Origin: Candidatus Saccharimonadota bacterium
GTDB lineage: Bacteria; Patescibacteriota; Saccharimonadia; Saccharimonadales; SZUA-47
DNA: 24,000 nucleotides
Direction of reading: 5' to 3'
Assembly: GCA_020428465.1 (NCBI GenBank)
Contig: JAGQMY010000047.1
Coordinates: 1 to 24,000, forward strand
The translations under genes and the position numbers were made by a program. Below, piece after piece: positions 2,418-21,735 of the stretch. A model generated the notes under the pieces. The model saw nothing but the letters and a program-made list of their open reading frames with translations, made no database searches and was not told the DNA's origin. Numbering within the stretch: position 1 is the first letter of the stretch; the number at the start of each line of letters is the position of its first letter.

Positions 2418-2996
2418 CTACAAATTTGCCCCTTCTCCCTTAGCGTTCCGTGTCAAAACAACCTCAAACTCAACGTTCTCTTTATTTATACCAAACCCAG
2501 ACAGTATCTTAGCAGCCATATTTTTAGCACTGTCCTCGCTTATCCCCGGCGAAGTCACATTAACAATATAAATAAACTGGCTTTTAGGATATATATCAAA
2601 ACCCTCACCAGATAATGAGTCTTTATCAAGCGCTAAGCCAGGCTTACCAGGCACCTTATAGGTAAAATCGGTTTTAACACTAAGTGTTTGACCTAGTTCA
2701 TCTTTATATCGGGCGGTTATAATATAGTTTTGTCCATGGCTAAGTATGCTTATAGGCTTTAGCTTGACGGTTTCATCAGCAAAAGAAAGTGTAAAATCAA
2801 AACTTGGGGAAGCTGAAATTTTTAAATCTTCAATACTTTTCGCGTGTGGGGTTTTTAAAATTATTTCTTTTATTTCTTCGGCGGGCACCTCAGAAACACT
2901 ACTATTTTTAAGACCGGTTGATATGATGACTAACAAAATTGCACCAACAAGAAGGCTGGCAAGAAGTTGAGGGTTTCGTCGTAGTTTATCTATCAT
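2418..2996 (-). CDS. Hypothetical bitopic membrane protein (N-terminal TM anchor plus ~160-aa extracytoplasmic domain); last gene of the T4SS-like train
   Basis: 192 aa. Hydrophobic segment LLASLLVGAILLVIISTGL after a basic N-terminus. GGAGG lies 8 nt upstream of the ATG. ATGA overlap with the upstream ORF indicates translational coupling. No recognisable catalytic motif. Confidence 0.6.
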   Translation of the reverse strand: MIDKLRRNPQLLASLLVGAILLVIISTGLKNSSVSEVPAEEIKEIILKTPHAKSIEDLKISASPSFDFTLSFADETVKLKPISILSHGQNYIITARYKDELGQTLSVKTDFTYKVPGKPGLALDKDSLSGEGFDIYPKSQFIYIVNVTSPGISEDSAKNMAAKILSGFGINKENVEFEVVLTRNAKGEGANL

Positions 2997-3970
2997 AGTT
3001 TAACCTCCCATAATCCATTTTCTGCTTCCACTAGGAATTGGCCGTTAATTAATTCGTAAACACCTTTTACCTCATGGAACCTTTTCCCGCTAATTGAACT
3101 AATTTCGGAATCCGTATTGTCGGCTGGAATTACTTTTGTTTTTGTAAAACCAAGCTCATCAAAGACGCACAACCTATCATTAAAAGCGAATGTTTTATCT
3201 AGGTTTATGGAAACACTTAAAACGGATTTTGATTCACCGGTAAGCCTATAAACGAGCTCGTTAGCACCATTCCAAACACTAATATATAATGAGTCGCCCA
3301 GCTTCTTTAGCCCATCTATGCCTAAGGGTAATTTCTGGCAGTTTGTAAGTGGCTCTGATGTTAATGTCTGTAAATCACACAAATACCCAGCACCCTCAGA
3401 CAAATCATTATAGGCTATAAAAGTTTTTTGGCCACTTGGTAATACATATATCCCGCCACCATATGGAACACCATCAATTGCAACCGATTCGTGAGTGTTT
3501 ATGTTGTATGTAGTTAATATGCCGTTTTCGTAATCTTCATCACCCACTTCTGGTGATTGTTGGGTACTGTTTTTATAGTAAAGTATTAACTCCGAAGATA
3601 GCCAGATAGGCGACACTAAACAGTCCATTACTTTATCTCTTAGTTCCAGGTTTTCTAAGTTAAAAACATAACAATTATTACCATCGGTTGCTGATAGCTG
3701 TTCTCCGCCAGGATCAAGTCCGATATTGTAGTACTCAAAGTTTTCGTAAGCACTAGTTTCCCCGTTTATTTTTAATAGTAACTTATCCCCCTCTTTATAT
3801 GCGTAAATCCCGCTTGTAGAAACAGCTACGTCTTTATAGTTGTCAGAGATTTTGTTTAAAACCACAGAGTTTTTGCTGAAGAAACGAGTCGCCGAGTATG
3901 CCAATATAACAAGCAACATAAACAACACCAACGTGTATAGAAATTTAGTGATAGTGTTTGATCTTCTCAT
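2993..3970 (-). CDS. Hypothetical bitopic membrane protein, possibly beta-propeller-like ectodomain
   Basis: The track ORF runs to 4003 but that start is GTG with no SD. The ATG at 3970 gives MRRSNTITKFLYTLVLFMLLVILAYSA, a positive-inside TM anchor, with GAGAG 7 nt upstream. Recurrent short beta-strand-like blocks (IYAYKEGDKLLL, CYVFNLENL, LILYYKN, IYVLPSGQKTFIAY, LYISVWNG) hint at a repeat or propeller fold. Confidence 0.55.
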   Translation of the reverse strand: MRRSNTITKFLYTLVLFMLLVILAYSATRFFSKNSVVLNKISDNYKDVAVSTSGIYAYKEGDKLLLKINGETSAYENFEYYNIGLDPGGEQLSATDGNNCYVFNLENLELRDKVMDCLVSPIWLSSELILYYKNSTQQSPEVGDEDYENGILTTYNINTHESVAIDGVPYGGGIYVLPSGQKTFIAYNDLSEGAGYLCDLQTLTSEPLTNCQKLPLGIDGLKKLGDSLYISVWNGANELVYRLTGESKSVLSVSINLDKTFAFNDRLCVFDELGFTKTKVIPADNTDSEISSISGKRFHEVKGVYELINGQFLVEAENGLWEVKL

Positions 3971-3989
3971 ATATTTACTCTCAGCTTCA

Positions 3990-5720
3990 TTAATATGCTC
4001 CACTCGGAACCGGCTTTACAAGATTTTCATTTAGAAGACTAACGACAGCGTCTGCGTGTTTGTCGAAATATTCAAAAGATTTATCGCTTGAAGCTTCGAC
4101 TAACAATGCCGGTGTACTAGTCTTGTAGTTATACCAGGCTTCGAAAAACCCAGGTCCACTATTCGGACTAGAGGGTTGATTAGTTATTTGAGAATACCGC
4201 AGTGCAAGACTACCGGATTCTGAGTTATTTGGTCCAGAAAAATATACTATATTTGTATTGCTGTGATAACTCAACACAAGACTAGCCTTACCTATACTTA
4301 GTAAAAAGCTTTGAATAGCTTGAGTTTCTGGCTCGCTTGCTGGGCTGGGGCCCTTACAATTGGGACCATCGGCGGGATTTTTTGTACAATCAGCTTGGTC
4401 CCATTTGTAGTCAAAGTTACGATTTAAGTTTACCCCGTTCTTATTAACTCTTCCGGGCGTGTTTTCGTCTGTCAAGCCCGCCCCATTTATTACTGGGATA
4501 GCAATGATTCGGACGTCGGGTGGAAGCTGTTTGTTGTACAAAAGTTCATGTGCTACTATTTGCCCTGCCTCTTCACCACCCGCGTGGATTGTGGCGCCAA
4601 CCACGACAGTCCTAATAGTTGTTTGGCCCGGACATGCATCTCTGATGTAAACGTTTATGTCTTGACCCGCACTATTCTTACCAATAGTCCCTGTTGGCTC
4701 GAGCTCAGACCAGTCAACTCCAACGCCTAGTCTAGTTAGGGTGTGTTGAGTACCTTCACAAGGGATTGCTGAGCCAGTAACTTCGAGATTTCCAAAGCCA
4801 TTACCACTAGATCCAGAACCGCATGCTAAACTATCGCCAGCTAGCTCGACAATAGCATTTATAGTTTCGGTTACGTTATTAAAGTACACGGTATTGTTCT
4901 CTACCCCAGAATACTTAGAAACATATCGTAGTAGATCACCGTTTGCAAATTCGTAGGACAATGAATTTTTAACTGCATCAAACCAACTATATTCACCGTT
5001 TAAACTATTTTCCCAGCTCGACCACTGGTAGACGGACCAAATCTTGTCAGCGCTTGATTGATAGTAGTATACAGTAGGCTGTCCTTTGCCCGCTGTAACA
5101 CCGAATGCATTGTATGAAGAAACTTTTTGTGTGGTGTCCTGTGGACTGGATGATGCCGCCTCACTAGTGGCATAGGTGTTCCATGCCCAACTATCGTTGG
5201 GTCCGGCGACTAGCATGCTGTTTTCTTGTTTCAGCTGAGCAACTGCAAGCATAGGGTTTATCCCACTAGCTGCTCCACCATCTACAAAAGCTTGTCCTAG
5301 GCCCTGAAAAGGTGACGTTTTACTTCCTACGTAGTCGTCTATGTATTGATTGATTGCGGAAGCAAAGCCACCGATACTGTTTATCGTAGGTAAATCTATG
5401 CCTAAGCAACTACTCGAGCCGGATACTCCCGAAGTCTGATTGGGCGTATATGGGTTGAAATAATACGCACCTTGTTTAATGAGCGACTTCACGCAACTAC
5501 TATAGCTTTGTGCATTTACGCGCTCGCAGTAACTATTAATTACTCCGTCTTGTGCTTGACTTATACTTCCGAAAATCATAATAAAACTTACCAGGAGTAA
5601 AAAATAAATATGTAATTTTCGCACAAACAAATAAGCATTGACATAAGACAAAGATGCAAAACTCGACGACACGGTAGTCTCTTCCGCTACCATTGCTCTT
5701 AATCTGGACAAGATAATCAT
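3990..5720 (-). CDS. Secreted or membrane-anchored bifunctional peptidoglycan hydrolase candidate: GH73/FlgJ-type glucosaminidase-like N-domain plus M14 zinc carboxypeptidase-like C-domain
   Basis: 576 aa. Hydrophobic signal/anchor HIYFLLLVSFIMIFGSISQAQ. GINPMLAVAQLKQENS...YNAFGV (about nt 5221-5265) resembles the AQAALESGWG...NNLFGIK pattern of glucosaminidase domains. IHAGGEEAG (His near nt 4584), GVNLNRNFDYKW (nt 4414-4432) and LSYHSNT (nt ~4261-4275) match the M14 HxxE / NRNF / distal-His layout. The start is supported by an ATGA overlap and GGAG 9 nt upstream. Confidence 0.6.
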   Translation of the reverse strand: MIILSRLRAMVAEETTVSSSFASLSYVNAYLFVRKLHIYFLLLVSFIMIFGSISQAQDGVINSYCERVNAQSYSSCVKSLIKQGAYYFNPYTPNQTSGVSGSSSCLGIDLPTINSIGGFASAINQYIDDYVGSKTSPFQGLGQAFVDGGAASGINPMLAVAQLKQENSMLVAGPNDSWAWNTYATSEAASSSPQDTTQKVSSYNAFGVTAGKGQPTVYYYQSSADKIWSVYQWSSWENSLNGEYSWFDAVKNSLSYEFANGDLLRYVSKYSGVENNTVYFNNVTETINAIVELAGDSLACGSGSSGNGFGNLEVTGSAIPCEGTQHTLTRLGVGVDWSELEPTGTIGKNSAGQDINVYIRDACPGQTTIRTVVVGATIHAGGEEAGQIVAHELLYNKQLPPDVRIIAIPVINGAGLTDENTPGRVNKNGVNLNRNFDYKWDQADCTKNPADGPNCKGPSPASEPETQAIQSFLLSIGKASLVLSYHSNTNIVYFSGPNNSESGSLALRYSQITNQPSSPNSGPGFFEAWYNYKTSTPALLVEASSDKSFEYFDKHADAVVSLLNENLVKPVPSGAY

Positions 5721-6349
5721 TGGCTAGCTCCAAAAAGTACGTCAATAATATTTTGAGGTACCCCCAAGTTTACTAGAGACTCCGTGTCAAAGTAACTTCC
5801 GGAAAACAAAATGTCCCAACTGTTATTTCTTAGCCTAGCCAATACTACCTCGCCCTCAACACCTGGACGCGAGCTAAATAATCTACCGGTTGCCCATTCA
5901 TTTTCAATAATTTTGACATTTTTTAAACGATAGCCACCACTAAGTGTGATGACTGAATTTTTTGAGCTTAAAACATCAACCAAATCAGATTCTGTCGATG
6001 TTTTTTTATTAGTAAAGGCAACAGTGCTTTCTACCACTGCATCTTTGTATGTTGTTATGTTTAAGTTTATATCATCAAAATCGGCACTCCTTAAAGTATA
6101 GCTTGCATTACCCAGCGGCAGTCCAACCGCTGCTCCACTTACCGAAATTGATGAGATTAATTGTTCATTACTATCTAATAAATTAATAGGAGAAGCATTC
6201 TCGGGTGTGTAATATAGCCTAAAGTACCCTAAGTTTACATTTGTATCATTACCATTGTTTTTATCATGTTTAACGGAACTCAAATACGAGAATGCAACAA
6301 CAAGCAAAATCGCCACTAACGGCACTATCAATAACTTAATCGTTCGCAT
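5717..6349 (-). CDS. Hypothetical bitopic membrane protein (VirB8-like role possible, unproven)
   Basis: The track ORF starts at 6385, overlapping the upstream gene by 34 nt. The ATG at 6349 gives MRTIKLLIVPLVAILLVVAFSYL, has AGGAG ~10 nt upstream and lies 2 nt after the upstream TAA. Single N-terminal TM plus ~180-aa ectodomain, with no catalytic motif. Confidence 0.6.
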   Translation of the reverse strand: MRTIKLLIVPLVAILLVVAFSYLSSVKHDKNNGNDTNVNLGYFRLYYTPENASPINLLDSNEQLISSISVSGAAVGLPLGNASYTLRSADFDDINLNITTYKDAVVESTVAFTNKKTSTESDLVDVLSSKNSVITLSGGYRLKNVKIIENEWATGRLFSSRPGVEGEVVLARLRNNSWDILFSGSYFDTESLVNLGVPQNIIDVLFGASQ

Positions 6350-6351
6350 GG

Positions 6352-9300
6352 TTACGGCACTCCTGGACCTATGTATCGAGACCAACCACCAGGGTAATCC
6401 GACAGATTACTACTAGTAAACCTAACCGGCTTTCCCCAGGTATTAGTTTCGTAAACTATAATATTGCCACTGGCGTCGGGACTTGAAGCTGCAATGGCAA
6501 CATGTCCACCGGCTGGATTTGACTCGTCGCTATTACATCCAAAACTAATTGTCAAAAAATCTCCGGGGATTATCTCATTTTGATTAACGTGCTCGAATAA
6601 ATCTGGTCTTTGTTGAGATGTCCAGTTCCCTGAGCATCCGACACCTTGATAGTTATATGCTTTAAAAAGCGCAACAGAAGCAAGACCGCTACATTCAAGT
6701 AAGTTATTGGGGCTCAATCCTTCGCTTCTACTTTGTAACCATGATTGTGGTGCTCCGCCATAATTTGAAGATGATGCTGTAAATCCATAAATTTGATTTG
6801 CCGCCACCCCGGAATAGGTGCCATATCCGTTGCCATAGAATGTACCGTCAAACTCCATCGCTGTACATAAAATTCTTTCTGTGTCTGTAACCCCAGATAG
6901 ACATTTTTGTTTAATTTTTAAACAATTATCTTTAATATCCTGACTGTAACTTCTAATGTTAAAGTTATCGGGTGAAAGAACTTCAGTGTATCCATCGCAA
7001 TTTACAATTCTGCCTCCCGCTGTCGAGCTACCTGAGGGTAACGCTATATTATCTAGAAGGTACTGAACCTTTTTTATGTATCCGTCTATTGTGTGATGTA
7101 CGCTATCAGCAAACTCTACATCATCACCGGTGTCCGGTGTAGTTTTTGCATTCTTTACGTATCCATTCCAATCTAGCAATATGATATTTTGACTATCTTG
7201 AAATTGAGAAATTACATCCTCAATTATTGCATTCCTGTCTTCTAGGTTTGAATTGTTATCGGATGACACCAAATTAACGACATAAACGAAAGAATTAGGT
7301 GAAATTTGTTTAATTTGTTTTATCAATTCTGCAAATTTTTCTCTAAAAAGATTCTGGTCAACGTTGCCGCTTGCGTCTACTTCAAGCCTGTTAGTGCCAA
7401 GTCCAACAACAAATGTCCCGGTTTGATTACTCTGTATAATCTGAGTATCGTTTGATAGTGCAGTAATGCCATCAACAATTGTTTCGGAAGGACAGGTTGA
7501 ACCATCACCCGTAATAGGCCCCTGAGTCTGAAATACTGCACGACATCCTTGTGCATTTACTGTGCTTTGCCATCCATGCCCATCAAAAGTTCTTGCAAGA
7601 TAGTTTTTTTCCGGATCGCTACCAGCTAAAGTTTGCATACCCTTAGTTAAAGAGTCTCCCAAAAAATAGATTTGGTTATTAACTGGCGCATCTTCTGGAG
7701 CAGTAAACTCAGACGTCTGAAGCCCAATTTCCGAACAAGATGAATCGTCTCCTTCGCCACATCCTAAACCTAATTCTGTAACTCTATCTGCTAGGTATAA
7801 TCTATAGCGAAGCTGGTCGTCTGTTTTATTGTTGCAATCGGATGAAGTTACGTCATATCTTTCTCTGTCATTATCCACTACGTTAAGTGTTACAGGATCT
7901 ATCTTTTTAGGGAAACATGACCCAAACCTATCATCGAAAGACTGAATATCCGACTCAACAACGTTGGCATTTTCTAATGGATCATCGGCTATCTGACTAT
8001 TTTGTTCAGTTAATGTAAATCCATATTTAGGAAAACCATAGTCAAAGGTATAGTCAGCGGCACTGGCTTTTGTGGTCAAAAAATTAAGTGAATTAAGAGG
8101 GTTTTGAAGTACCAAGCCACCAAATCCCTTCAAATTCATTGGCGTGCTCATTGAAACCCGAGCAACCAAAGAGTCAACATTACTTATGTCAAAATATCTC
8201 TCATAAAGACTTTTTGATTTGTTGTCTAGGGCAATTGTTTGCATCTGGTCTGCGACTAAGGCCTGTTCGTCGCTTTCAGACATTTCTGAACCACCAAAAG
8301 CAAATGATGCCATGTTTGAGGCTATCCTAGCTCCATACATAAGATAATTTCCAAGTTCAGCCCCGACTGCGTATAGATTAATACCTGAACCCGCCAATAT
8401 GTCAACTAACTTTCCTGCAAGCTGATCAGGTGAGAGACCCAAAGGACCGAGAATTGCATTTAGCCCCGCCTGTGATGCTTCGCCTATTTGCTTAAGAACT
8501 GGAAGTCCACCGATAAAATCCTGAACACTACAAATTGTTCCTAATAGCGGAATGTCATCTATTGCCCTGAAAAAGGCTGGCTTCTCGCCTAACTTGCCTG
8601 GCTTTAACTCACTATCTAAATCGGGTCCAGAATCTACACCATTTAGTGATTTTTGAAACGGCTGAGCCATAATTGCATCGGAATTGTTAAGCACATCAAA
8701 TAAATCTTGAGAATAGACCCCAATCTCATCGCTGCTGACATCTTCTCCTGACATTATTTGTGCCCCAAGGGACATGTATGAAGTTGCAACTCTAGCCATG
8801 GGTAAAATTACGTTGGTGTACTGTAAAATTTCCGCTGCATTTCCAAGAGCCTTGACTCCGCATAAAAGAGCAGCGGCTGCTGCTGCGCTTCCGGCGATTC
8901 TACCCGCCACCTTTAGTTTGGCGGCTGCCTTATCGGATATAAAGCTTGGTTTAAGACGATTTTTTTCAGCGGTTTGTGCTACTTCTTCAGCGATATCGTT
9001 TGCTTCGCCAGCAGCAATACTTTCTGGCGTGGTGTCCGGTGTAGTATCAATGTTCCCGTCCCCGTTTGTATCGGTGCCGGTTTTTGGTAGATTAACATCC
9101 GTACTACCATTTGCTACTCTCGCAGCTCTATCTTCTTTGAACTTTAACGCCCACTCAACGAACCTATCGGTCGCCGCTCTTCTCACACTTTGTAACGGAT
9201 GAAGGATATGAAAATCCATCCCGCCATATTTTATTAACAAACGACTTGCTAACTTATCTGGGACACCTTCTATTTCAGCGCCTGCAGTTACAACACGCGC

Positions 9301-10146
9301 CAATGACCTTCGTTTACTTAGCTTTTCGTCGGATACATCTATTATTCTTGAGCCTTGACCCACTCTGTTATTGGAACCATCAAAACTATCTCTTGCTAAC
9401 GATCCGTTTGTGTTATAGCCTTCAGCCTCCAACTTTTTAAGCAAAGGATCAGCTTTTGCAGGATCAACGACCTCATATCCAATAAATCGACGTGTAATTG
9501 GTGAGTAAACAGATTTCAAGCCCGTATTCTTTAGAACGGCCTGGTCCCACTTAACTGCATACCTGCTAGCTATTCTGCCTAATCTTAGATTTTGTACAGA
9601 GTGGGTTTTCAATACTTTATATAAGCTCCAGGTTCTGCCATCCATAAACTCAGAGTTACTTTGAAAGTGAAACCTTTGAAGTAAATTTGCGAAGTGGAGC
9701 ACCTTAAAAGGAGCAAAAGATGCAAATAGTAGGTAAAAAGTAACCACTACGCCACCCAAGCCAACTCCACCTGCAATTGATTTTTTTCTATTTCTCAGTA
9801 TGCCATTTACCAGTTTTGCTGCCGGGTTGGTCCCTTGATTATCTAGCGAAAGGTTGTTAGAAAAAGACTTATCTGGTGTCAGCTTTGATTCAGCATCAGA
9901 ACGCCCAGCATCGTTATTTCCCGATAATGGGTTAATATCCATTTCTTCTACTCCGATGTTTTGACCGGGGCTTTTATTGGGGCTTACTGGTTCGTCGCCA
10001 GATTCATCACTCCAGCCATCGGGATTCCAGAATCCATCAGCGGAGGTGTTATCAGGATTCTGTCTGTTAGCGGGATTCAAAGAATCATCATTATTGTCGG
10101 GTGCGAATCCTTCTTCCTCGCGCTTTTTTAGTGAACCTGGCTGCAT
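6352..10146 (-). CDS. Large membrane-anchored multidomain cell-wall hydrolase (VirB1-analogue candidate): disordered N-terminus, TM, ~650-aa unknown region, SGNH/GDSL esterase, C-terminal NlpC/P60 cysteine peptidase
   Basis: 1264 aa. TM segment GGVGLGGVVVTFYLLFASFAPF. SGNH blocks IYFLGDSLTKG (GDS codons at nt 7651-7659), VVGLGTN and DSVHHT (nt ~7094-7108). NlpC/P60 hallmarks are LLECSGLASVAL (Cys codon 6691-6693), PGDFL and GGHVAIA (His codon 6502-6504). Located immediately downstream of virB4. Confidence 0.75.
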   Translation of the reverse strand: MQPGSLKKREEEGFAPDNNDDSLNPANRQNPDNTSADGFWNPDGWSDESGDEPVSPNKSPGQNIGVEEMDINPLSGNNDAGRSDAESKLTPDKSFSNNLSLDNQGTNPAAKLVNGILRNRKKSIAGGVGLGGVVVTFYLLFASFAPFKVLHFANLLQRFHFQSNSEFMDGRTWSLYKVLKTHSVQNLRLGRIASRYAVKWDQAVLKNTGLKSVYSPITRRFIGYEVVDPAKADPLLKKLEAEGYNTNGSLARDSFDGSNNRVGQGSRIIDVSDEKLSKRRSLARVVTAGAEIEGVPDKLASRLLIKYGGMDFHILHPLQSVRRAATDRFVEWALKFKEDRAARVANGSTDVNLPKTGTDTNGDGNIDTTPDTTPESIAAGEANDIAEEVAQTAEKNRLKPSFISDKAAAKLKVAGRIAGSAAAAAALLCGVKALGNAAEILQYTNVILPMARVATSYMSLGAQIMSGEDVSSDEIGVYSQDLFDVLNNSDAIMAQPFQKSLNGVDSGPDLDSELKPGKLGEKPAFFRAIDDIPLLGTICSVQDFIGGLPVLKQIGEASQAGLNAILGPLGLSPDQLAGKLVDILAGSGINLYAVGAELGNYLMYGARIASNMASFAFGGSEMSESDEQALVADQMQTIALDNKSKSLYERYFDISNVDSLVARVSMSTPMNLKGFGGLVLQNPLNSLNFLTTKASAADYTFDYGFPKYGFTLTEQNSQIADDPLENANVVESDIQSFDDRFGSCFPKKIDPVTLNVVDNDRERYDVTSSDCNNKTDDQLRYRLYLADRVTELGLGCGEGDDSSCSEIGLQTSEFTAPEDAPVNNQIYFLGDSLTKGMQTLAGSDPEKNYLARTFDGHGWQSTVNAQGCRAVFQTQGPITGDGSTCPSETIVDGITALSNDTQIIQSNQTGTFVVGLGTNRLEVDASGNVDQNLFREKFAELIKQIKQISPNSFVYVVNLVSSDNNSNLEDRNAIIEDVISQFQDSQNIILLDWNGYVKNAKTTPDTGDDVEFADSVHHTIDGYIKKVQYLLDNIALPSGSSTAGGRIVNCDGYTEVLSPDNFNIRSYSQDIKDNCLKIKQKCLSGVTDTERILCTAMEFDGTFYGNGYGTYSGVAANQIYGFTASSSNYGGAPQSWLQSRSEGLSPNNLLECSGLASVALFKAYNYQGVGCSGNWTSQQRPDLFEHVNQNEIIPGDFLTISFGCNSDESNPAGGHVAIAASSPDASGNIIVYETNTWGKPVRFTSSNLSDYPGGWSRYIGPGVP

Positions 10147-10158: not shown

Positions 10159-12063
10159 TTATTGCTTTAACTCTACGGTATTATTATACCCCGTTTGGTT
10201 GAGGTCTACTTGCTCGGTTTTGACTGGTGGTCTTTTTTCATTTGGGTTAGTTGTTATCAGGTTTGTTTCAGTTGGACTTGCCACAATCTGCATGTGCACA
10301 TGGTTAGATCCGGCGAAGAATAATCCTTGACCAACCGGGAATTGACTAAGGCGTTTTTTCTCTTCACTGGTTAACTTGAAGGTTTGCGCCAGGACATCAA
10401 CAGCAGACGTTGATTGCTTTAACAGAATCTGCATACTTGCATTAGCTACGATTGCTCGTCCCATTCGAGACCCCATAAAGTCCTCGACATCCTGGGTAAT
10501 TGTCGTAATGCCCAGATTATATTTACGAGCTCGTTTGGCTAAACTGAATAAGAAACTAGCGCTATCTTCATATTTCATTAACTGCCACGCCTCATCAACA
10601 ATCAAAATTCTTCGTTTCTGGTCGACTTTAGTCTTATTCCAGATGAAATTCAGCACGATATACATTGCTACCGGGCGAAGCTCATCTTCTAGATCACGAA
10701 TATTAAACACGACCAGAGGGTTGTTAATCTCAATGTTACTAGGTTGGCTAAAAATACCCGCGAACGTTCCGGTTGTATATTTTCGCAACCTTTGAGCTAG
10801 TTGCGGCCCAGAACCTCCAGAGTGCAAAAGTGTATCATACAAACTTGCGATAGTTGGTGCAGGAGAATTATGAGTAAGCGGGTCATTAGTTATGCCAGCT
10901 TTGGCGTATGTTTCTATTAATGCAGCATCAAGATCAGCTTCCTCTTCGGGAGTTAGTGATGGTCGAACTACATCTGATCCTGAAGCCAGAGCTGCGGCTC
11001 CACCCATCATGAGACGCAGTAACCCATGCAATGTGATTAAGTTACTGCGGAGTGCGTTATCGGCCTCTTCAGGGTCAGATACCTTAGGCAAATCGAACGG
11101 ATTTATTCTGGTTTTGCTGTTTAGGCTCAAGCGAACATATGCACCACCGACAGCATCACACATTTTGGCGTATTCATTCTCGGGATCGATAATGAATACC
11201 TCGGTACCGAACATCATACTTCGAAGAGCCTCTAGCTTAACTGTAAAGCTTTTTCCTGCGCCTGATTTGGCAAAGACAACACTGTTACCGTTCTCGAGTG
11301 AGAATCTATCAAAGATAACAAGTCCAGAGTTATGCATGTTTATTCCGTATAAAATACCATTTTCTTGGCTCAAATCAGCACTTGTGAAGGGAAAAGTTGT
11401 ACTTACAGCTCCCGTATTCATGTTGCGTCGAATTTGAAGTTGGTCAGTAAACTGCGGGATTGTTGAGTTGAGTCCTTGCTCTTGTTGGGCTCCTGCTGGT
11501 TTACTATAGACCAGCTGTTGCGCCAAAACGCTCTCAACCTTATGAGATACATACTCCATTTCTTCGGCATCGTTTGCATATATTGTAAAATAAAGACCAA
11601 ATCTAAAGAAGCGCTCTTCTCCAACCTGAAGCTTGTCCCTCAACTCCTCGGCATCGACTATAGCTGCTTGTTTGCCAGGATCGCGCACTTTACCCTTTTC
11701 AGCATCGATTTGCAGACCGGCTTCAAGTTGACCAACTTTCTTACGTAAGTTTTCCAGAACTACTTGGCTTTCAACAGGATATATAAACATCGACATATCT
11801 ATAACTTCATCAAGGTTTATCATACTGCTTAACCAGCCGGTATAAAGTCTACGAGGATAGCCATATACGTAGTACGTTCTTGCTATACGTGTACCGATTT
11901 TGAACTGACTCGATTCGAACTCTAAACTTGCAGGTGCAATGAAATCTCTAAGAGCTGTTACGCCCTTTTCGAATGCAACTTGAACCTCTTGTTGTTCGCG
12001 CAAAGCCTGTGCTTGTGCCTGCGCAACTGGATCGGTTGCTGGTTTTTTGTTAAAAATTCCCAC
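10159..12063 (-). CDS. virB4: T4SS ATPase, VirB4/TrbE/PrgJ family
   Basis: 634 aa. Walker A FAKSGAGKSF (nt ~11248-11268) and Walker B ILIVDEAWQL (nt ~10585-10608). N-domain pattern DFIAP..LEF......IG.R.ART..V.GYPR....GWL is typical of monoderm VirB4 proteins. GTG start with GGGAG 8 nt upstream, overlapping the upstream TAG by 1 nt (TAGTG). Confidence 0.9.
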   Translation of the reverse strand: MGIFNKKPATDPVAQAQAQALREQQEVQVAFEKGVTALRDFIAPASLEFESSQFKIGTRIARTYYVYGYPRRLYTGWLSSMINLDEVIDMSMFIYPVESQVVLENLRKKVGQLEAGLQIDAEKGKVRDPGKQAAIVDAEELRDKLQVGEERFFRFGLYFTIYANDAEEMEYVSHKVESVLAQQLVYSKPAGAQQEQGLNSTIPQFTDQLQIRRNMNTGAVSTTFPFTSADLSQENGILYGINMHNSGLVIFDRFSLENGNSVVFAKSGAGKSFTVKLEALRSMMFGTEVFIIDPENEYAKMCDAVGGAYVRLSLNSKTRINPFDLPKVSDPEEADNALRSNLITLHGLLRLMMGGAAALASGSDVVRPSLTPEEEADLDAALIETYAKAGITNDPLTHNSPAPTIASLYDTLLHSGGSGPQLAQRLRKYTTGTFAGIFSQPSNIEINNPLVVFNIRDLEDELRPVAMYIVLNFIWNKTKVDQKRRILIVDEAWQLMKYEDSASFLFSLAKRARKYNLGITTITQDVEDFMGSRMGRAIVANASMQILLKQSTSAVDVLAQTFKLTSEEKKRLSQFPVGQGLFFAGSNHVHMQIVASPTETNLITTNPNEKRPPVKTEQVDLNQTGYNNTVELKQ

Positions 12064-12869
12064 TATTGTAGCTCCCTCTCAAGTTGTGGCTGAGCAGCGT
12101 GGCCTACGCCCTTTTCAATAACCGGTGCATTCATATCTTCAAAATTCTTGAGCGGCTGACGTGTAGCCGTATCTGGATTGTAGGCATCATAGTAAAGCTC
12201 GATTAATTCCTGGGTATCAAGTGGGATAGAGGCTACGCCAGACTGCTGTAGTCCAGCCATAACGGCTTGGATGCGATTTTTTAACTCTGTTTTTGCTTGC
12301 TCTAGCACCGCTTCGTTGATTACTACTTGTGTATCTTTTTTACCAAATACAGCGGTAAAAAAGTTTTTACTAGCTTTTATGGCTTTCTGCGTGTCCAGTT
12401 GCGGGAAAAAAGGTATAACAACGTAAAATCTCTTATCCATTATGTTGGTCTGCAATGCTAAATTCTCGATAAAGTCTAAGTAGTCGTCCATCAGGAGTGC
12501 GAGCAACATATTATCATGCTCAGAACGAATTTTATCTAGCTTTTCTATATACGGTCGTAGATCGACTTTTTGACTACGGACAAAAATCTGAATCGGAAAG
12601 TATAACGAATTTAGAAAACCTTGGTAGCTGAACTCGACAGCTTCACGCTCCTGGGGGCTCATTAGGTCGAAATTGATACTTTGACAAGCTAAAACAGCTC
12701 GAAAGCTGCCGTCGTTCATTATCACGATACCATCTCGAATCTCGGCAATTTCAAGAGAATTCTGAGTGCTGTTCGGATTCGACTTTACCATAGGTTGAGC
12801 TACAGGTTGACCAGGTACTCCGGGCATGGTCTGCTGAATATTCGGCTGTATCGCTTGGTTTGGATTCAT
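12063..12869 (-). CDS. Soluble T4SS-associated protein of unknown function (reminiscent of a VirB4 N-terminal, non-ATPase domain)
   Basis: 268 aa with no TM and no Walker motif. The Pro/Gln-rich first 40 aa are followed by EIRDGIVIMNDGSFRAVLACQSINFDLMSPQEREAVEFSYQGFLNSLYFPIQIFV, a pattern I associate with N-domains of some Gram-positive VirB4/TraE-type ATPases. AGGTGG SD. Coupled to virB4. Confidence 0.55.
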   Translation of the reverse strand: MNPNQAIQPNIQQTMPGVPGQPVAQPMVKSNPNSTQNSLEIAEIRDGIVIMNDGSFRAVLACQSINFDLMSPQEREAVEFSYQGFLNSLYFPIQIFVRSQKVDLRPYIEKLDKIRSEHDNMLLALLMDDYLDFIENLALQTNIMDKRFYVVIPFFPQLDTQKAIKASKNFFTAVFGKKDTQVVINEAVLEQAKTELKNRIQAVMAGLQQSGVASIPLDTQELIELYYDAYNPDTATRQPLKNFEDMNAPVIEKGVGHAAQPQLERELQ

Positions 12870-12887
12870 TTTCCACCTTTAATCAGG

Positions 12888-14054
12888 TTAGTGTAATTGA
12901 ATAACAACTTCATCTTCATCTGGCTTGTCTCTATCTACCTGCCTAGCTAGAGTGTCCACCGTTAAGTCGTCGTTGCCTGCTAAGTTTAGTATAGCAGGAT
13001 TAACGGGGTGAGTGCTAGGAGTTTGTGTTGTTTGTGGTTGGGATACGGAAGGCTGATTTCCAGATGGATTTTGACCCAAAGGCTGAATGGTTTTCAATCG
13101 ACTATTTGAACTAAACTGAGCATCAAGTTGTTGTTGTTTGTGAACTTTTTGGAGCAAATTTTGCTCATCAGTTGAAGTTATACCAGTATTTGGCTGTATT
13201 GACGGTACTGGCTGGCTTAGCGGAGTTTGTTTTGCAGGAGCTACTAATAAAGGTGGCGTTTTAAAGCTAGCAACAGTAGGATCGGCTTTATTATTCTGGT
13301 TAAGAAACCATAAATCATCGGCGGTCGTTTGATTATTGCTGTTACTTTTTGGTTGAGGAAGTGGCATAGGGTAATTTTGTTGTTGAGTTGCTGGTCCTTG
13401 CTCGGACATCCTTCTCGCCTCTTCAATCATTCCAAGAGTGTCACGGCGGTGTTTCGTATTTGACTGTTCAATCATATTGTCAAATTGACGCGCAAGCGGA
13501 TTGGATGCCTCGTCCATAACATCAACAGTGTTATCTACTAAAACCGTTTTTTCATCTTGTACGTCTGTTGGCAAAGAAACTAACCTATCACTCGTGTCGA
13601 GGTTGCTACGAGTGGATAAACTTGAAAGATTTTTTACTGCCCAGCCCCTACTATCTACAACTGACGCTAGCGCATTAAACCGACTTCTTACTTCGTCAGG
13701 ACTTAGCCCATCAGTTAAATTGTGGTGCTCACGTTTTGGTACGGTTATCTTCACGAGCTCTTTCATCCCGGCTTGATCCCATATGCGTTTTCGCCTTATG
13801 AACATGAACCTAATGTGTGCTGCAAGCCAGAGCTCAGACGGTTGGTCTTTAGTCCAGGGAAATGCCAGGATACCTAATGCTATTGCTGGTAAGCCAAAAA
13901 GCGGAGACAAAAATGCAGCTCCTTTTGAGATGGTGATAAAAGTTAACCAACCGAACATTGCCGTCCCACCAAAGAATAGAAACTGCCGAAATGTTAGGGG
14001 GCCTAAAAACTTATCTTCTGCCTCAACATCTTGAGGTACCTTATACACAGCCAT
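12888..14054 (-). CDS. PrgI-family (VirB3-like) T4SS membrane protein with ~280-aa low-complexity C-terminal extension
   Basis: 388 aa. The N-terminus MAVYKVPQDVEAEDKFLGPLTFRQFLFFGG plus two TM helices (AMFGWLTFITI.., LFGLPAIALGILAF) matches the PrgI-family signature (KVP.D...EDK....LT.RQ). It sits two genes upstream of virB4. The remainder is rich in Q/P/N/S/T. Confidence 0.65.
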   Translation of the reverse strand: MAVYKVPQDVEAEDKFLGPLTFRQFLFFGGTAMFGWLTFITISKGAAFLSPLFGLPAIALGILAFPWTKDQPSELWLAAHIRFMFIRRKRIWDQAGMKELVKITVPKREHHNLTDGLSPDEVRSRFNALASVVDSRGWAVKNLSSLSTRSNLDTSDRLVSLPTDVQDEKTVLVDNTVDVMDEASNPLARQFDNMIEQSNTKHRRDTLGMIEEARRMSEQGPATQQQNYPMPLPQPKSNSNNQTTADDLWFLNQNNKADPTVASFKTPPLLVAPAKQTPLSQPVPSIQPNTGITSTDEQNLLQKVHKQQQLDAQFSSNSRLKTIQPLGQNPSGNQPSVSQPQTTQTPSTHPVNPAILNLAGNDDLTVDTLARQVDRDKPDEDEVVIQLH

Positions 14055-14189
14055 ATGGCTATAGTATAAAACAGTTAATGCATATAAAGAAACCTAAGGA
14101 TGTTATAACAAGTAACTATAAATTCATGTTGTTTTGGTGTGTGGATTTTATTTAAATGACTAGTAGATAACTAATACTTACTGGTTTGA

Positions 14190-15992
14190 CTATGCGTTGT
14201 CAGGATCGCCGTTATTTTGTTGCTGTTCCTGCTGTCTTCTATATTCCTCGCGACGTCGATTTCTCGCATCAATTAGCGCTTGCTCCCACTCTTGTTGTTT
14301 CCGTTGTTTGCGGCCTGCTTTTAGTTGTTCGTTGTTGTCCTCAACGCGCCTTCGTCTTACTTTTCTTGCGTCTGATCTTTGGCGCCTTCTTAGTTGTTTT
14401 AGTTTTCCGCGATCTTCTGGCTTTGCCGGACTCAAAGACGCTCTGCTGTCTTTTGTTGTAATTTTGATATTTTCCCGTCTTATCCTGCTTAAAGCTGCTT
14501 GCTCGTCAAAACCTTTCAAATTTCCGAATGTATCAATCCATTCTTGTCTTTCCGCCTCCAGGAAGTAGTAGTTACTTGCGTTTAAGATCGATAATTCCTT
14601 TTGATCAATATACTTAAGGTTAGGGAACAATTCACACGCGACATCTGTTATAGCTGCAACCTTTTCCCAGTTCTTCTCGGCTAATGCCGTACCACCGGTA
14701 CGTAATGGCTGGCCGTCAAAGAATAACTGACCAGTTTTCTTATTAAATCTCACAGGTGGCATTGATAGTAAACCTCTGGCGCCCAACTTATCTCTAAGTG
14801 CATGCGCACCAGCATCATCCCCTTCGGGATTGATGTTAGATCCATATCTAAGAATTGAGATAATCATCGCTGCTCTTTGCAGAATAAACTGTGACCTAAT
14901 GAATTCTTCCGATGTTGGTTCTACGGCTTTTTCTATGGTGGTCTCAAGTGCTGTATTAACTATTGTAGTTAGGTTCGCTATGTCTACTGCACTAAATCCT
15001 GATAGCTCGTAAGACCTTATCTTCGCAGCCATTTCCTGGATAAATTTAACCCCATCAACACCCCTATACTCATACTCACCCTTTGCGTTAATTGCATAGT
15101 ATAAGTGCCTAAACGACAAGTGCTGACCTTTGTGTGCGTAACCTATTCCCAAAATCAGTCCCGCAATATCTCTATCTGTAAATGGCCCGCCTTCAAACGA
15201 GTATTGCCTTCGTTTAGCGGCTTCGTTTACTAATTCGAATGTTCTCTTGATTGTCTCTATAAATTGAAGTTCATGAGATGATTTGTGTATCTCATACCAA
15301 AAAGCTGCCGCAAACGCTGAAGGGTCTTGGAACCACTGTTGTCTAGCTTGAGCAACTTGTGCTGCATTGTAAGTTTTGTTTGGGTCGTGTATATCAATCC
15401 ATACTCCTGGTCTATCTGGTGACTCTCGAGCGAACAAAGCACGGATTAGTTCATCTGGACCGGTACTTTCCTTATTGTGCATAAGCTCCATGAAAAGTTT
15501 GTTAGCTTTAGCACGTCTTTCGTCTTGGTTTGTAAAGTTTTCGGTGTTACCAAAATAAATAACACCAGCTTTTCTAACGAACCTCTCGAGTCTCCTGAGT
15601 GGTGCGCCACCAGCTCCTTCAGGTTTGATTCCAGCTCTTTTTACTGCTTCCATGGTTGGAATGGGGTAAGCTTTACCGACCTCTGCAGTTTCGTAACTTG
15701 TCGAAATTCTTGCCCTGTCTTTTGACGATGCGGGCACATTTGAATCGCCTATAAACATTCTTTTTGCTGCTTCAGCAAGCATTCTAAACGTATCAGGGTC
15801 GGATGTATCAAGCTCTTCGTTCACGCCGGGCATACTAAGTGCTGATTGACCTATCAATGCTCGTAACATACTCGGATCAACATCACCCAAACGCGCCATA
15901 TCCGACGGCAATACTAACCCTGATTCAGTCTGTTGCCAATCGAGGCGGGGGTCTTGTGGAACCTGGGGGTTCTGTGGATTAGGGCTGTCCAT
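14190..15992 (-). CDS. Soluble 600-aa protein of unknown function with Arg/Lys/Gln-rich C-terminal tail
   Basis: Long ORF with no TM, no signal peptide and no NTPase motif. The last ~100 aa (nt ~14190-14490) read ...KLKQLRRRQRSDARKVRRRRVEDNNEQLKAGRKQRKQQEWEQALIDARNRRREEYRRQQEQQQ. Embedded between the VirB6-like and PrgI-like genes on the same strand. Confidence 0.7.
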   Translation of the reverse strand: MDSPNPQNPQVPQDPRLDWQQTESGLVLPSDMARLGDVDPSMLRALIGQSALSMPGVNEELDTSDPDTFRMLAEAAKRMFIGDSNVPASSKDRARISTSYETAEVGKAYPIPTMEAVKRAGIKPEGAGGAPLRRLERFVRKAGVIYFGNTENFTNQDERRAKANKLFMELMHNKESTGPDELIRALFARESPDRPGVWIDIHDPNKTYNAAQVAQARQQWFQDPSAFAAAFWYEIHKSSHELQFIETIKRTFELVNEAAKRRQYSFEGGPFTDRDIAGLILGIGYAHKGQHLSFRHLYYAINAKGEYEYRGVDGVKFIQEMAAKIRSYELSGFSAVDIANLTTIVNTALETTIEKAVEPTSEEFIRSQFILQRAAMIISILRYGSNINPEGDDAGAHALRDKLGARGLLSMPPVRFNKKTGQLFFDGQPLRTGGTALAEKNWEKVAAITDVACELFPNLKYIDQKELSILNASNYYFLEAERQEWIDTFGNLKGFDEQAALSRIRRENIKITTKDSRASLSPAKPEDRGKLKQLRRRQRSDARKVRRRRVEDNNEQLKAGRKQRKQQEWEQALIDARNRRREEYRRQQEQQQNNGDPDNA

Positions 15993-16053
15993 ATTTAAAA
16001 CATTAGCACATTATTGCAAAAAAGTAAAGAAGTTTATAGTAAAACAATCAATC

Positions 16054-18803: not shown

Positions 18804-19538
18804 ATGCAAAAAATAAAACATATCCAACCCAAAGCAATTCAAATAATATTTACACTTTCCTCGGCTTTATTACTCACATTACTAATCAGACCTAGCTATG
18901 CAAGCGCAGCTCTATCACCAGGCTGTTACATACAAGGACCCTCGGGTGGCTATACAGAGCATGATTGTGTGAATAGTGACACTGACCCAAATACTCAATG
19001 CGAGATTACGATCAGTTCTAGGAGCGGCCCCTCAACTACTACGATTAAAGATTGTGATACTTTAAGTCAGCCGACACAGAGTGATGGGGGTACGAGTGGT
19101 GGTACAGATACTAATCCAGGATCAGCAAACCTAAACTGTACAAGTGGTGGCTCATCTGATATTTGTAGCCCAATAAGTCCTGGAGGCGAAACAAGCACCT
19201 CCACAGGCACCGATGGTAAACAATGCGGTCGCGGTGAATCAGCTGTTGTTTTGAGCATTTCTATCGGTTGTAGGGGTAATGACTGGCCAGGCGTAGATTC
19301 TGTTAATCCTATCATAGATATGGTTTTAGCAGTGGTAAGATTCCTGAGTTTGGGTGTTGGAGTCGTAGTAGTTGGATCGATTATTTGGGCTGGGATCCAA
19401 TATTCCACATCAAGAGGTGACCCCCAAGCAGTTTCAGCATCTATAAATAGGGTTACAAATTCATTTATAGCATTATTGTTGTATATATTTATCTTTGCGA
19501 TTGCAAACTTTTTAGTTCCGGGGGGCATGTTTATATGA
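18804..19538 (+). CDS. T4SS pilin-like protein (VirB2/TrbC topology), enlarged paralog 1 with Cys/Ser/Thr/Gly-rich ectodomain
   Basis: 244 aa. Signal peptide ...LLIRPSYASA, a ~130-aa S/T/G-rich region with about nine Cys, then the TM hairpin LAVVRFLSLGVGVVVVGSIIWAGIQYSTSRGDPQAV...FIALLLYIFIFAIANFLV shared with the downstream paralogs. Confidence 0.7.
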   Translation: MQKIKHIQPKAIQIIFTLSSALLLTLLIRPSYASAALSPGCYIQGPSGGYTEHDCVNSDTDPNTQCEITISSRSGPSTTTIKDCDTLSQPTQSDGGTSGGTDTNPGSANLNCTSGGSSDICSPISPGGETSTSTGTDGKQCGRGESAVVLSISIGCRGNDWPGVDSVNPIIDMVLAVVRFLSLGVGVVVVGSIIWAGIQYSTSRGDPQAVSASINRVTNSFIALLLYIFIFAIANFLVPGGMFI

Positions 19539-19984
19539 TAAAGAAGCTTATTTCTAAGTTTCTATTGTTCCAACTCGGCGTATTTATATTTGTGCCTATT
19601 ACAAACATTGGTGTCGCAAGTGCTGCAGATTCGGGATGTACTGGTGGAAGTTTCTTAGGTTTTCCAACTTGGTATGAGTATTTAGATAAACAATCAGTCC
19701 CAAATGACATTACGACCGACCCAAATGATGAAATATGCGAGCTAAAGGTAGACAATATTAAAGACTTCTGGCTTATCGCACTCGCCGTGATAGAGATACT
19801 GCTTAGGGTAGCATCTATTCTTGCGGTAGGTATGCTAATTTATGGTGGAGTTAGTTATGTGATTAGCGAGGGTAATCCTGAAAAAACTAAAAAAGCACAA
19901 AGCACTATTATTAATGCAATCGTAGGTCTAGCCATAAGTATAGTAGCGGCATCTGTCATCGGGTTCGTTGCGAGGAGTTTTTGA
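19535..19984 (+). CDS. T4SS pilin-like protein, paralog 2
   Basis: 149 aa. Signal peptide ..NIGVASA/AD, Cys pair (SGC...EIC), TM1 LAVIEILLRVASILAVGMLIYGG, loop VSYVISEGNPEKTKKA, TM2 IINAIVGLAISIVAASVIGFV. ATGA overlap with paralog 1. Confidence 0.75.
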   Translation: MIKKLISKFLLFQLGVFIFVPITNIGVASAADSGCTGGSFLGFPTWYEYLDKQSVPNDITTDPNDEICELKVDNIKDFWLIALAVIEILLRVASILAVGMLIYGGVSYVISEGNPEKTKKAQSTIINAIVGLAISIVAASVIGFVARSF

Positions 19985-19987
19985 TTT

Positions 19988-20320
19988 ATGAATTATCTAT
20001 TATTAAATAGTCGTTTATCACAGCTTAAAAATTGTAACCCTGGTTCCGGAAATACGGAAAATGTTAATTGCAATACCACCTTACCTGACGTGTCGGCGAG
20101 TAGTGACACCTTATCTAAAGTTTTGCCTATTTTGTTCGGCACAATTACTGCTATAGCGGTTCTTATTATTGTTGTTCAGGGGATACGTTTTGTTTTGAGC
20201 AAGGGTGAACCGGATAAAGCACTGCAAGCTCGAAAGGGTGTTATTTATGCTGCAGTTGGCCTTGCCGTTGTCTTTATGGCAGACATAATTGTCGCATTTA
20301 TTTTAAAGAGGTTCCTATAA
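19988..20320 (+). CDS. T4SS pilin-like protein, paralog 3 (no recognisable signal peptide)
   Basis: 110 aa. Same C-terminal hairpin (ITAIAVLIIVVQGIRFVLSKGEPDKALQARKGVIYAAVGLAVVFMADIIV) and a Cys pair (NCNPGSGNTENVNC). The N-terminus MNYLLLNSRLSQLK lacks a hydrophobic signal core. GAGGAG SD upstream. Confidence 0.65.
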   Translation: MNYLLLNSRLSQLKNCNPGSGNTENVNCNTTLPDVSASSDTLSKVLPILFGTITAIAVLIIVVQGIRFVLSKGEPDKALQARKGVIYAAVGLAVVFMADIIVAFILKRFL

Positions 20321-20739: not shown

Positions 20740-20768
20740 TAGAATATGAAAAGGAGTATCAATCAATA

Positions 20769-21233: not shown

Positions 21234-21255
21234 GATTGCTATAGTAATCGTGTTA

Positions 21256-21715: not shown

Positions 21716-21735
21716 TTAAAACAGATAATTCAGAT

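Follow-up and report, generated by a model that had tools for sequence, protein, structure and literature searches.

What is a peptidoglycan hydrolase with two different catalytic domains doing in the type IV secretion system (T4SS) operon of a member of the Saccharibacteria? We addressed this question for the gene at positions 3990 to 5720, minus strand, of a 24,000-nucleotide stretch (positions 1 to 24,000 of contig JAGQMY010000047.1, assembly GCA_020428465.1), hereafter the window, which carries the chromosomal T4SS located near the origin in a Candidatus Saccharibacteria genome. As judged from sequence, modelled structure and analogy, the product is probably a Sec-exported two-domain peptidoglycan hydrolase and a dedicated part of this T4SS. 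The combination of a two-domain architecture with a T4SS setting is far beyond chance, because the C-terminal domain matches Pfam PF00246 at E 2.5e-16, the N-terminal domain belongs to a family with 303 representatives and synteny is retained in 9 related loci. The gene comprises the following features (aa, amino acids; ORF, open reading frame; pLDDT, predicted local distance difference test).

3990..5720, minus strand: whole gene, predicted 576-aa exported two-domain peptidoglycan hydrolase (ORF list and translation; 100% match to P0001)
5717..5720, minus strand: ATGA start/stop overlap with the upstream 222-aa ORF, translational coupling (sequence read)
5553..5720, minus strand: N-terminal export signal or anchor, aa 1-56 (translation; homologues P0002, P0003 and P0006)
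5418..5552, minus strand: Cys-containing N-terminal helical segment, aa 57-101 (alignments A1 and A4)
4815..5417, minus strand: divergent GH73-like (lysozyme-fold) glycosidase core, aa 102-302 (family profile, PF01832 in the family, fold match)
5223..5225, minus strand: codon of Glu166, predicted general-acid catalytic Glu (KQ-E-NS), invariant in the 45- and 100-sequence alignments
4788..4814, minus strand: flexible linker rich in Gly and Ser, aa 303-311 (pLDDT drops between the two confidently modelled domains)
4011..4787, minus strand: MpaA-like M14 zinc carboxypeptidase domain, aa 312-570 (PF00246, relatives, Foldseek)
4572..4586, minus strand: first zinc motif, H379-A-G-G-E383 (HxxxE); H in 65/65 and E in 64/65 relatives
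4419..4451, minus strand: predicted substrate-carboxylate binding residues R424, N433 and R434 ('NLNRNF'), conserved in 64-65/65
4263..4265, minus strand: codon of H486, predicted third zinc ligand (LSY-H-S), conserved in 65/65
4095..4097, minus strand: codon of E542, predicted general-base Glu (LLV-E-A), conserved in 65/65

The ORF is intact. All of the motifs quoted in the first-pass annotation of this DNA were found in its translation (NPMLAV, aa 155-160; KQENS, 164-168; YNAFG, 203-207; IHAGGEE, 378-384; NLNRNF, 431-436; LSYHS, 483-487). The same annotation had described a signal or anchor segment and translational coupling within a train of T4SS genes, and both are borne out: the ATGA lies at 5720-5717 in the T4SS operon, and the N-terminal signal is conserved in homologues. 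This signal consists of a long n-region, a hydrophobic core at aa 38-53 and then SQA/QD, where cleavage is likely after A56. Since the hydrophobic core and A-x-A/Q-type sites recur in the three closest full-length homologues (P0002, P0003 and P0006), the protein is very likely exported. The public annotation (KC960_04330, Candidatus Saccharibacteria bacterium) gives a 100% identical protein of 529 aa, 47 aa shorter and starting at Met48. Such a start would cut away most of the hydrophobic signal (window 5580-5720, minus strand). The longer start, with the ATG at 5720, is more plausible because a GGAG lies 7 nt upstream of it and it overlaps the stop codon of the previous gene. Beyond the signal, the segment at aa 57-101 has a conserved C64, C75, C104 region and a 'QG.YYF' motif, and is modelled at pLDDT 50-80. 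The full-length AlphaFold model has a pLDDT of 87.7, with a whole-chain predicted template-modelling score (pTM) of only 0.63.

The C-terminal half is firmly placed, on sequence and model, as an M14 domain of the MpaA-like kind. Pfam Peptidase_M14 (PF00246) is matched at aa 345-500 with 60.6 bits against a cut-off of 21.6, rising to 62.6 bits for the isolated domain. By sequence, carboxypeptidase B and MpaA are the best matches in the PDB; of the two, only MpaA aligns over most of the domain, up to the catalytic Glu. The closest database relatives of the domain, a small Saccharibacteria cluster aside, carry the JGI names MpaA or murein peptide amidase A and share 30-35% identity with it across ~80% of its length. 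In the full-length model the pLDDT of this domain is mostly >90, and its top Foldseek match is E. coli MpaA (5hxd; E 1.6e-10, template-modelling score (TM) 0.66-0.69 on target); there were 105 PDB matches at E<=1e-3, and all of the 50 matches listed are M14. An alignment of 65 sequences retains H379, E383, R424, N433, R434, H486 and E542 in 64-65 of its members. We take H379, E383 and H486 to be the zinc ligands, R424, N433 and R434 to correspond to R127, N144 and R145 of carboxypeptidase A, and E542 to its E270. Thus the M14-like C-half that had been proposed from motifs alone stands, with PF00246 above cut-off and MpaA as best fold match, and the zinc ligands together with the general-base Glu are present, in HxxxE spacing. 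Identity as an MpaA orthologue was rejected: the NCBIfam MpaA equivalog NF007897 scores a sub-threshold 29.8 bits against a cut-off of 157, and in the window protein an export signal and a glycosidase precede the domain.

The N-terminal half is more divergent. A profile of the four closest homologous sequences gave a marginal match to the GH73 autolysin Acp (5wqw, E 0.0036), in which the family 'ESG' falls on 'HETG' and 'YNAFG' on 'YNLFG'. An exhaustive HMMER search with this profile recovered 303 cluster representatives at E<=1e-3 and 128 at E<=1e-10. PF01832 (Glucosaminidase) is matched at E<=1e-3 by 61 of the 100 best family members, with a best value of 1.4e-9; in P0002, 55% identical to the window protein, its score of 21.8 bits stays under the cut-off of 30.2. 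With the window copy included, a 45-sequence profile of the family matched GH73 structures only among the PDB entries (Acp 5wqw 4.6e-8, AtlE 4.1e-6, Atl 1.4e-4, a phage hydrolase, FlgJ 1.4e-3 and LytB). The AF2 model of the domain (pLDDT 87.6, pTM 0.80) has the lysozyme-like alpha-helical fold of GH73, and its top 13 PDB matches in Foldseek are all GH73; the best matches among the viral models of BFVD are phage N-acetylglucosaminidases. In the profile alignments Glu166 coincides with the E of 'HETG' in Acp and of 'VETG' in AtlE, which we take to be the catalytic Glu of these enzymes. The only invariant positions of the family are N155, P156, E166, N204, Y270 and Y279. The residue after Glu166 is Asn rather than Ser. 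We rejected 'EN' in place of 'ES' as a sign of a dead GH73 domain, given that 'EN' is common in other family members. The glucosaminidase-like N-half with a conserved Glu, as first suggested, therefore survives as a divergent GH73-like member, supported by the family profile, by PF01832 matches within the family and by fold: fold and catalytic Glu agree with GH73, and the curated sequence threshold is not reached. The family as a whole, with at least 303 representatives, is mostly missed by current Pfam thresholds.

How closely is this gene tied to the secretion system? We compared the window with nine related loci (L001-L009), five from a genome collection (titled Candidatus Saccharibacteria or Saccharimonas) and four Logan contigs. 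The features around the gene in the window are as follows.

6352..10146, minus strand: partner hydrolase gene, 1264-aa membrane protein with a GDSL/SGNH esterase domain at aa 826-1024 and a weakly CHAP/NlpC-like C-terminus (Pfam, PDB match)
10159..18690, minus strand: core T4SS genes upstream in the operon, namely VirB4, 268-aa, PrgI/VirB3, 600-aa and 878-aa VirB6-like (NCBIfam, Pfam)
18804..22267, plus strand: seven VirB2-type T4SS pilin genes in a divergent array (PF18895 match for 7/7, 6 above cut-off)
5717..6385, minus strand: 222-aa exported protein between the two hydrolase genes (ORF list; 29% identity to the L002 equivalent)
2418..4003, minus strand: two small membrane or exported proteins, 336 aa (2993-4003) and 192 aa (2418-2996), ending the operon beside recF (ORF list; syntenic in L001-L004)

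The T4SS operon runs on the minus strand, with dnaN and recF on the plus strand. In order of transcription it encodes the 878-aa VirB6-like protein, the 600-aa protein, PrgI/VirB3, a 268-aa TraC/TrsD-like protein, VirB4, the 1264-aa and 222-aa proteins, the hydrolase and the two small exported proteins. VirB4 matches NCBIfam conju_CD1110 at 356 bits and PrgI its Pfam family at 50.4 bits, and the VirB6-like protein has a weak CD3337/EF1877 match. The 1264-aa protein carries GDSL_2 (33.5 bits, Pfam cut-off 32.9). Its last ~200 aa (6352-7000, minus strand) match the endolysin Lys2972 (8tw1) weakly, at E 0.01, with a 'CSG' Cys and a 'GGHV' His aligned, which suggests a CHAP/NlpC-like peptidase undetected by Pfam. 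The 222-aa protein has no Pfam or NCBIfam family match, and the same is true of the 600-aa protein (14190-15992, minus strand), which lies between PrgI and the VirB6-like gene, has a highly charged C-terminus rich in Arg, Lys, Glu and Gln, and is 34% identical to its equivalent in L002. The first pilin is longer than the others (244 aa), with a Cys/Gly/Ser/Thr-rich N-terminal part, and the array agrees with the essential pilin array reported for Candidatus Southlakia epibionticum ML1 (hereafter ML1).

The hydrolase gene thus lies inside a T4SS operon near VirB4, as is typical of the VirB1 class, and a GH73-like gene fills the same slot of L001-L009. It has no SLT or CHAP match in Pfam and therefore no homology to the domains of canonical VirB1, TrsG or CD419, so that it is analogous rather than homologous to that class. 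Dedication to the T4SS is the most likely interpretation of the ATGA coupling in a VirB4/PrgI/VirB6 operon, the conservation of the slot in 9/9 loci and the essential counterpart in ML1 (discussed below).

What changes between the loci is the partner domain. The architectures are listed below (GH73L, GH73-like domain).

Window: GH73L-M14; large protein with GDSL and a possible CHAP-like end
L001: GH73L-M14-PF26571 (LAS-type HxxxxxxD...HxH signature); large protein with GDSL and VanY
L002-L004: GH73L-M23; large protein with GDSL
L005: GH73L-CHAP
L006 and L008: GDSL-GH73L-M23; no other hydrolase domains identified
L007: GDSL-GH73L-Cys peptidase; large protein with M14 at its C-terminus
L009: GH73L-NlpC/P60; no other hydrolase domains identified

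All nine loci are syntenic with recF, eight with dnaN and six with virB4, the remaining contigs ending short. Five of them came from profile scans of genome contigs, in which alignment A1 found no relative and the narrower alignment A6 found 5 loci, all from Saccharibacteria; this is a small sample that says little on the full taxonomic range of the GH73-like family. Among 100 representatives of that family the partners are C39-like (15), CHAP (12), M23 (9), GDSL (9), Amidase_3 (8), phage lysozyme (6), NlpC/P60 (5), SLT (4), Amidase_2 (3), M14 (2), M74 (2) and VanY (2). In P0004, P0005 and L007 (5583-6392), the large T4SS membrane protein also ends in this M14 module, 38-58% identical. The GDSL esterase has shifted in the opposite direction, onto the GH73-like protein, in L006-L008. 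Moreover, P0002 (L001 6876-9200) and P0003 carry a third module after M14, PF26571 'VldE', with a LAS-type metallopeptidase signature that is not present in the window protein. Taken together, the GH73-like domain is the constant element, and the peptidase and esterase form a kit that is shuffled over two genes. M14 is a rare choice of partner, and a multi-module hydrolase kit is a lineage-wide property of Saccharibacteria T4SS loci.

A comparison with the close relative L001 shows how unevenly this region has diverged. For window positions 1-12503 against L001, amino-acid identities and the counts obtained by the method of Nei and Gojobori are as follows (dS and dN, synonymous and nonsynonymous divergence; pS, proportion of synonymous differences).

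dnaN: 98.9% aa identity, dS 0.25, dN 0.005
recF: 98.3% aa identity, dS 0.24, dN 0.011
VirB4: 97.8% aa identity, dS 1.73, dN 0.016
Hydrolase, 3990..5720: 54-56% aa identity, dS saturated (pS 0.82), dN 0.38

A block of ~7.5 kb (~2436-10001, the 1264-aa to 192-aa genes) barely aligns with L001 DNA, and its flanks are 84-94% identical. Within the block the 1264-aa protein is ~34% identical to that of L001 and the small neighbours (222, 336 and 192 aa) 23-60%. Diversifying selection on the block was considered and is undercut by synonymous sites that are saturated throughout it (pS 0.74-0.87) and by the dS of virB4. Because synonymous divergence jumps between adjacent genes, from ~0.25 in dnaN and recF to 1.73 in virB4, the whole T4SS locus is apparently much older than the replication genes beside it, or recombined. 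On these sequence counts the hydrolase block is far less constrained than VirB4, and we do not claim positive selection.

We propose the following role. After export, the GH73-like domain would cut the glycan strand with Glu166 as general acid, the target suggested by family membership being the bond between N-acetylglucosamine (GlcNAc) and N-acetylmuramic acid. The M14 domain, held on the flexible Gly/Ser linker, would remove the C-terminal diamino acid of uncross-linked stem tripeptides by hydrolysis of the gamma-D-Glu-diamino-acid bond; the sequence shows this domain with its catalytic residues, and the bond specificity is predicted from the nearest characterised relatives. Together with the 1264-aa GDSL-esterase protein, the enzyme would locally open or thin the wall for the T4SS channel and a VirB2-type pilus, a step to which the operon position and the precedents of CwlT, PrgK and TcpG point. 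Cooperation with the esterase might involve peptidoglycan de-O-acetylation, and the opening of cross-links would fall to the putative CHAP-like end of the 1264-aa protein (E 0.01). The first-pass annotation had credited the locus with glycan-cleaving, stem-peptide-cleaving, cross-link-cleaving and de-esterifying activities. Domains for the glycan-cleaving and stem-peptide-cleaving activities were found, and the cross-link-cleaving activity assigned to the 1264-aa protein comes down to the single endolysin match at E 0.01. From this number of activities, judged to exceed what an assembly hole for the machine would need, it had gone on to host-wall breaching or muropeptide scavenging, which is plausible. 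The activities do not by themselves show breaching of a host wall, because monoderm T4SS ordinarily carry hydrolases with two activities, and kits of several modules are the rule in this lineage. The host-wall reading is kept alive by module turnover, by the requirement of the T4SS for epibiotic growth and by the possibility, raised for CwlT, of action on the recipient wall. We would put at about even, or a little less, the chance that the wall in question is also that of the host where the two cells touch, rather than that of the epibiont alone.

Several points weigh against the proposed role. The N-domain of the window protein, taken alone, has no Pfam match even at E<=10 and does not reach the curated threshold of PF01832, and the GH73 call was therefore taken from family profiles and fold comparison. 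Its GH73 fold matches are consistent but weak (Foldseek E from 1.7e-3, TM 0.35-0.42). A second invariant Asp or Glu was not found in the family alignment; in GH73 the second carboxylate, on a beta-hairpin, is present in FlgJ and Auto and absent or variable in other clusters. The window copy keeps 22 of the 26 positions that are conserved at >=80% and deviates at four. The deviations are R208V in 'NAFGR' and the change of 'YAP.SDGN' to 'YSGVE-NN': where the C-terminal Tyr motif of the family, 'YAP.SDGN..Y', aligns to 'YAT' in Acp and 'YAS' in AtlE, the window's 'YSGVE-NNTVY' keeps Y270 and Y279 and has lost A271, P272 and N274. The same deviations, along with a ~25-residue insertion, are common to a subgroup of the family, and so look like a subtype rather than decay. 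The GH73-like activity or specificity may nevertheless differ from that of the family, whose own activities are predictions from sequence and fold. In the C-half, the spacing of the zinc motif is non-canonical, HxxxE being one residue longer than HxxE. The longer spacing is probably tolerated, because the insertion recurs in P0002 and in three unrelated MpaA-like proteins (P0187, P0199 and P0205). We rejected a dead enzyme as the default for the same reason, with the other catalytic residues intact. M14 enzymes are exopeptidases that need a free C-terminal carboxylate, and the M14 domain would therefore trim uncross-linked stems, could not break cross-links and would have little lytic power alone. 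MpaA acts on free tripeptide, not on sacculi. Lastly, the observations fit the epibiont's own wall and the host wall alike.

Could the enzyme serve another end? The nearest characterised relative of its C-domain, MpaA, is a peptidoglycan-recycling enzyme, which would suit the scavenging of muropeptides and amino sugars from the host wall: GlcNAc-ended fragments and free diamino acid would be released, and the position in the T4SS operon would serve only for co-expression at contact. TM7x cannot make UDP-GlcNAc while having the rest of the peptidoglycan pathway (PMC10768705), and Saccharibacteria are without amino-acid biosynthesis (PMC10633639). Against this, the slot in other lineages carries M23, CHAP, NlpC/P60 or LAS endopeptidases, which release cross-linked fragments and not free amino acids, so that M14 chemistry is not the conserved feature. 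The MpaA equivalog, at 29.8 against 157, also speaks against a recycling enzyme, and no adjacent uptake transporter was seen within the window in the ORF list or by Pfam. We regard scavenging as improbable. An ordinary housekeeping autolysin for growth, division or budding, merely located in the T4SS operon, appears more improbable again. GH73 and MpaA-like or Csd4-like M14 enzymes are common in cell separation and wall trimming, and an ordinary export signal is present, but within the T4SS operon the start codon shares bases with the stop of the gene before it, VirB4 synteny holds strictly (9/9 loci as counted) despite complete turnover of the partner domain, and M14 modules are also fused to the large T4SS membrane protein (P0004, P0005 and L007).

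The divergence of the block could instead be read as the mark of an anti-host lytic effector or toxin that harms or kills the host cell in the 'killing phase' of a Saccharibacteria infection, with the 222-, 336- and 192-aa proteins as its inhibitors or immunity factors. The genes for the 1264-aa to 192-aa proteins, five in all, have diverged jointly (23-60% aa identity against a relative with a 97.8% identical VirB4), peptidase modules are shuffled between lineages, and the T4SS genes of TM7x are most strongly expressed at initial encounter (PMC10768705). However, synonymous saturation and the deep coalescence of the T4SS locus (virB4 dS 1.73, dnaN 0.25) account for this pattern with no need of positive selection. 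Neither Pfam nor NCBIfam recognises an inhibitor or immunity fold in the small neighbours, the signal is of Sec type rather than a known T4SS translocation signal, and ML1 requires its counterpart for growth as such and not for killing alone. A toxin is accordingly about as hard to credit as scavenging, and slightly harder. All three explanations are weaker than a hydrolase dedicated to the T4SS.

If the hydrolase is a dedicated T4SS part, the pattern of a constant GH73-like domain with a changing partner leads to a further hypothesis. The GH73-like domain would be a constant blade, and the swapped peptidase (M14 of MpaA type in the window; M23, CHAP, NlpC/P60 or LAS elsewhere) would be matched to the stem-peptide or cross-bridge chemistry of the host wall. 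The gene would then be a determinant of host range, acting on the wall of the host where the cells meet, and hosts would be changed by recombination of modules between naturally competent Saccharibacteria. We think this unlikely as it stands, and offer it as speculation. That the hydrolase slot exists and matters is already known from ML1, and wall hydrolases in a T4SS locus will not surprise a specialist. What is new here is the M14 partner, a constant GH73-like family mostly below Pfam thresholds, and the shuffling of modules across two genes. No description of an M14 domain in a T4SS hydrolase came up in the literature, though none of our searches was directed at this point. Cultivated Saccharibacteria cannot live as epibionts without the T4SS, and its hydrolases are the parts most easily tested in vitro; the constant-blade, variable-partner pattern makes a concrete host-range hypothesis of them. 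If the partner tracks host wall chemistry, genomes could reveal which hosts uncultivated Saccharibacteria can use. Otherwise, the window holds a local version of the two-activity wall hydrolase that is usual in monoderm T4SS.

How does the enzyme compare with known systems? Domain by domain, MpaA (E. coli 5hxd, Vibrio 4axv; MEROPS M14) is the best match in sequence and fold, a short single-domain M14 core that has the 'SEPET', 'NRNF', 'YH' and catalytic Glu motifs in common with the window domain. It differs in that identity is only 22-23% and that the window has HxxxE for HxxE, 'NGAG' for 'NPDG' and 'VNLNRNF' for 'VDLNRNF'. Moreover, the window domain is predicted to be extracellular and is fused to a glycosidase, whereas MpaA recycles free tripeptide. 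Csd4 of Helicobacter and Pgp1 of Campylobacter are M14 DL-carboxypeptidases that are non-cytoplasmic and trim tripeptide stems to dipeptides on intact sacculi; both determine cell shape in diderms, contain additional domains and are not known to be linked to secretion systems. Specific similarity to them did not turn up in the sequence and fold searches, none of which was aimed at them. For the N-half, GH73 structures (C. perfringens Acp, S. aureus AtlE, Atl and SagB, Listeria Auto, pneumococcal LytB, FlgJ) are the only PDB families matched by the profile, and likewise by the fold. In the family alignment the Glu in its '..ES/ET-G' context, 'YN.FG' and the C-terminal 'YA(P/T)' motif fall on those of GH73, the last of them reading 'YSG' in the window copy, and the window domain differs by a ~25-residue insertion after the catalytic helix and by the Cys-containing N-terminal segment.

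The closest whole counterpart is SEML1_0006 of ML1, which has PF01832 at aa 110-186, then a phage tail lysozyme and then a Cys protease, and which lies directly downstream of virB4 with SEML1_0007; both genes were scored essential by transposon sequencing (PMC10633639 supplement). Canonical VirB1 homologues are poorly associated with virB4 in most Patescibacteria classes, two-domain VirB1 homologues have been described in monoderms, and the SEML1 'peptidase and lysozyme homologues' have been suggested to fill the VirB1 role (PMC12102498). Comparison of the annotated genes SEML1_0002-0019 with the window shows the same order of dnaN, recF, small exported proteins, GH73-like hydrolase, large hydrolase-bearing protein, VirB4 and PrgI, a PF01832-type N-terminal domain at a similar position, and a second peptidoglycan-hydrolase gene adjoining. 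By annotation, PF18013 phage-tail lysozyme and a Cys protease take the place that M14 has in the window. The large ML1 protein (SEML1_0007) ends in a Hedgehog/DD-peptidase fold, whereas that of the window has GDSL and a possible CHAP-like end, and the 222-aa gene that separates the window's two hydrolase genes has no equivalent there in ML1. Downstream of the hydrolase, ML1 encodes a PEGA-domain protein and a prealbumin-like protein at the positions where the window has the 336- and 192-aa proteins.

A wider comparison is offered by CwlT (ICEBs1), Orf14 (Tn916), TcpG (pCW3), PrgK (pCF10) and TraG (pIP501), genes of T4SS operons whose products have an N-terminal membrane or export signal. Like the window protein, enzymes of this type join a lysozyme-fold glycan cutter to a stem-peptide peptidase, and they are required for transfer (PMC9324163, PMC12102498). 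CwlT is a muramidase and NlpC/P60 DL-endopeptidase required for conjugation, Orf14 is likewise a muramidase and DL-endopeptidase, and possible action of the donor hydrolase on the recipient has been raised for CwlT (PMC9324163). These systems move DNA, whereas in the Saccharibacteria T4SS, on which epibiotic growth depends, no relaxase is recognisable (PMC10633639). As glycosidase, the monoderm enzymes usually have SLT or a CwlT-type lysozyme, whereas that of the window is GH73-like. TcpG is reportedly a glucosaminidase of FlgJ type. Their peptidase is a Cys enzyme (NlpC/P60 or CHAP), in contrast to the zinc M14 exopeptidase of the window. The DL-endopeptidase of CwlT nonetheless cuts the gamma-D-Glu-diamino-acid bond, the same bond that is expected for an MpaA-type M14 enzyme. 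On the best-supported reading, that of a Sec-exported, T4SS-dedicated wall hydrolase functionally analogous to CwlT and Orf14, the Cys peptidase of the two-activity hydrolase has been non-homologously replaced by an MpaA-type zinc carboxypeptidase.

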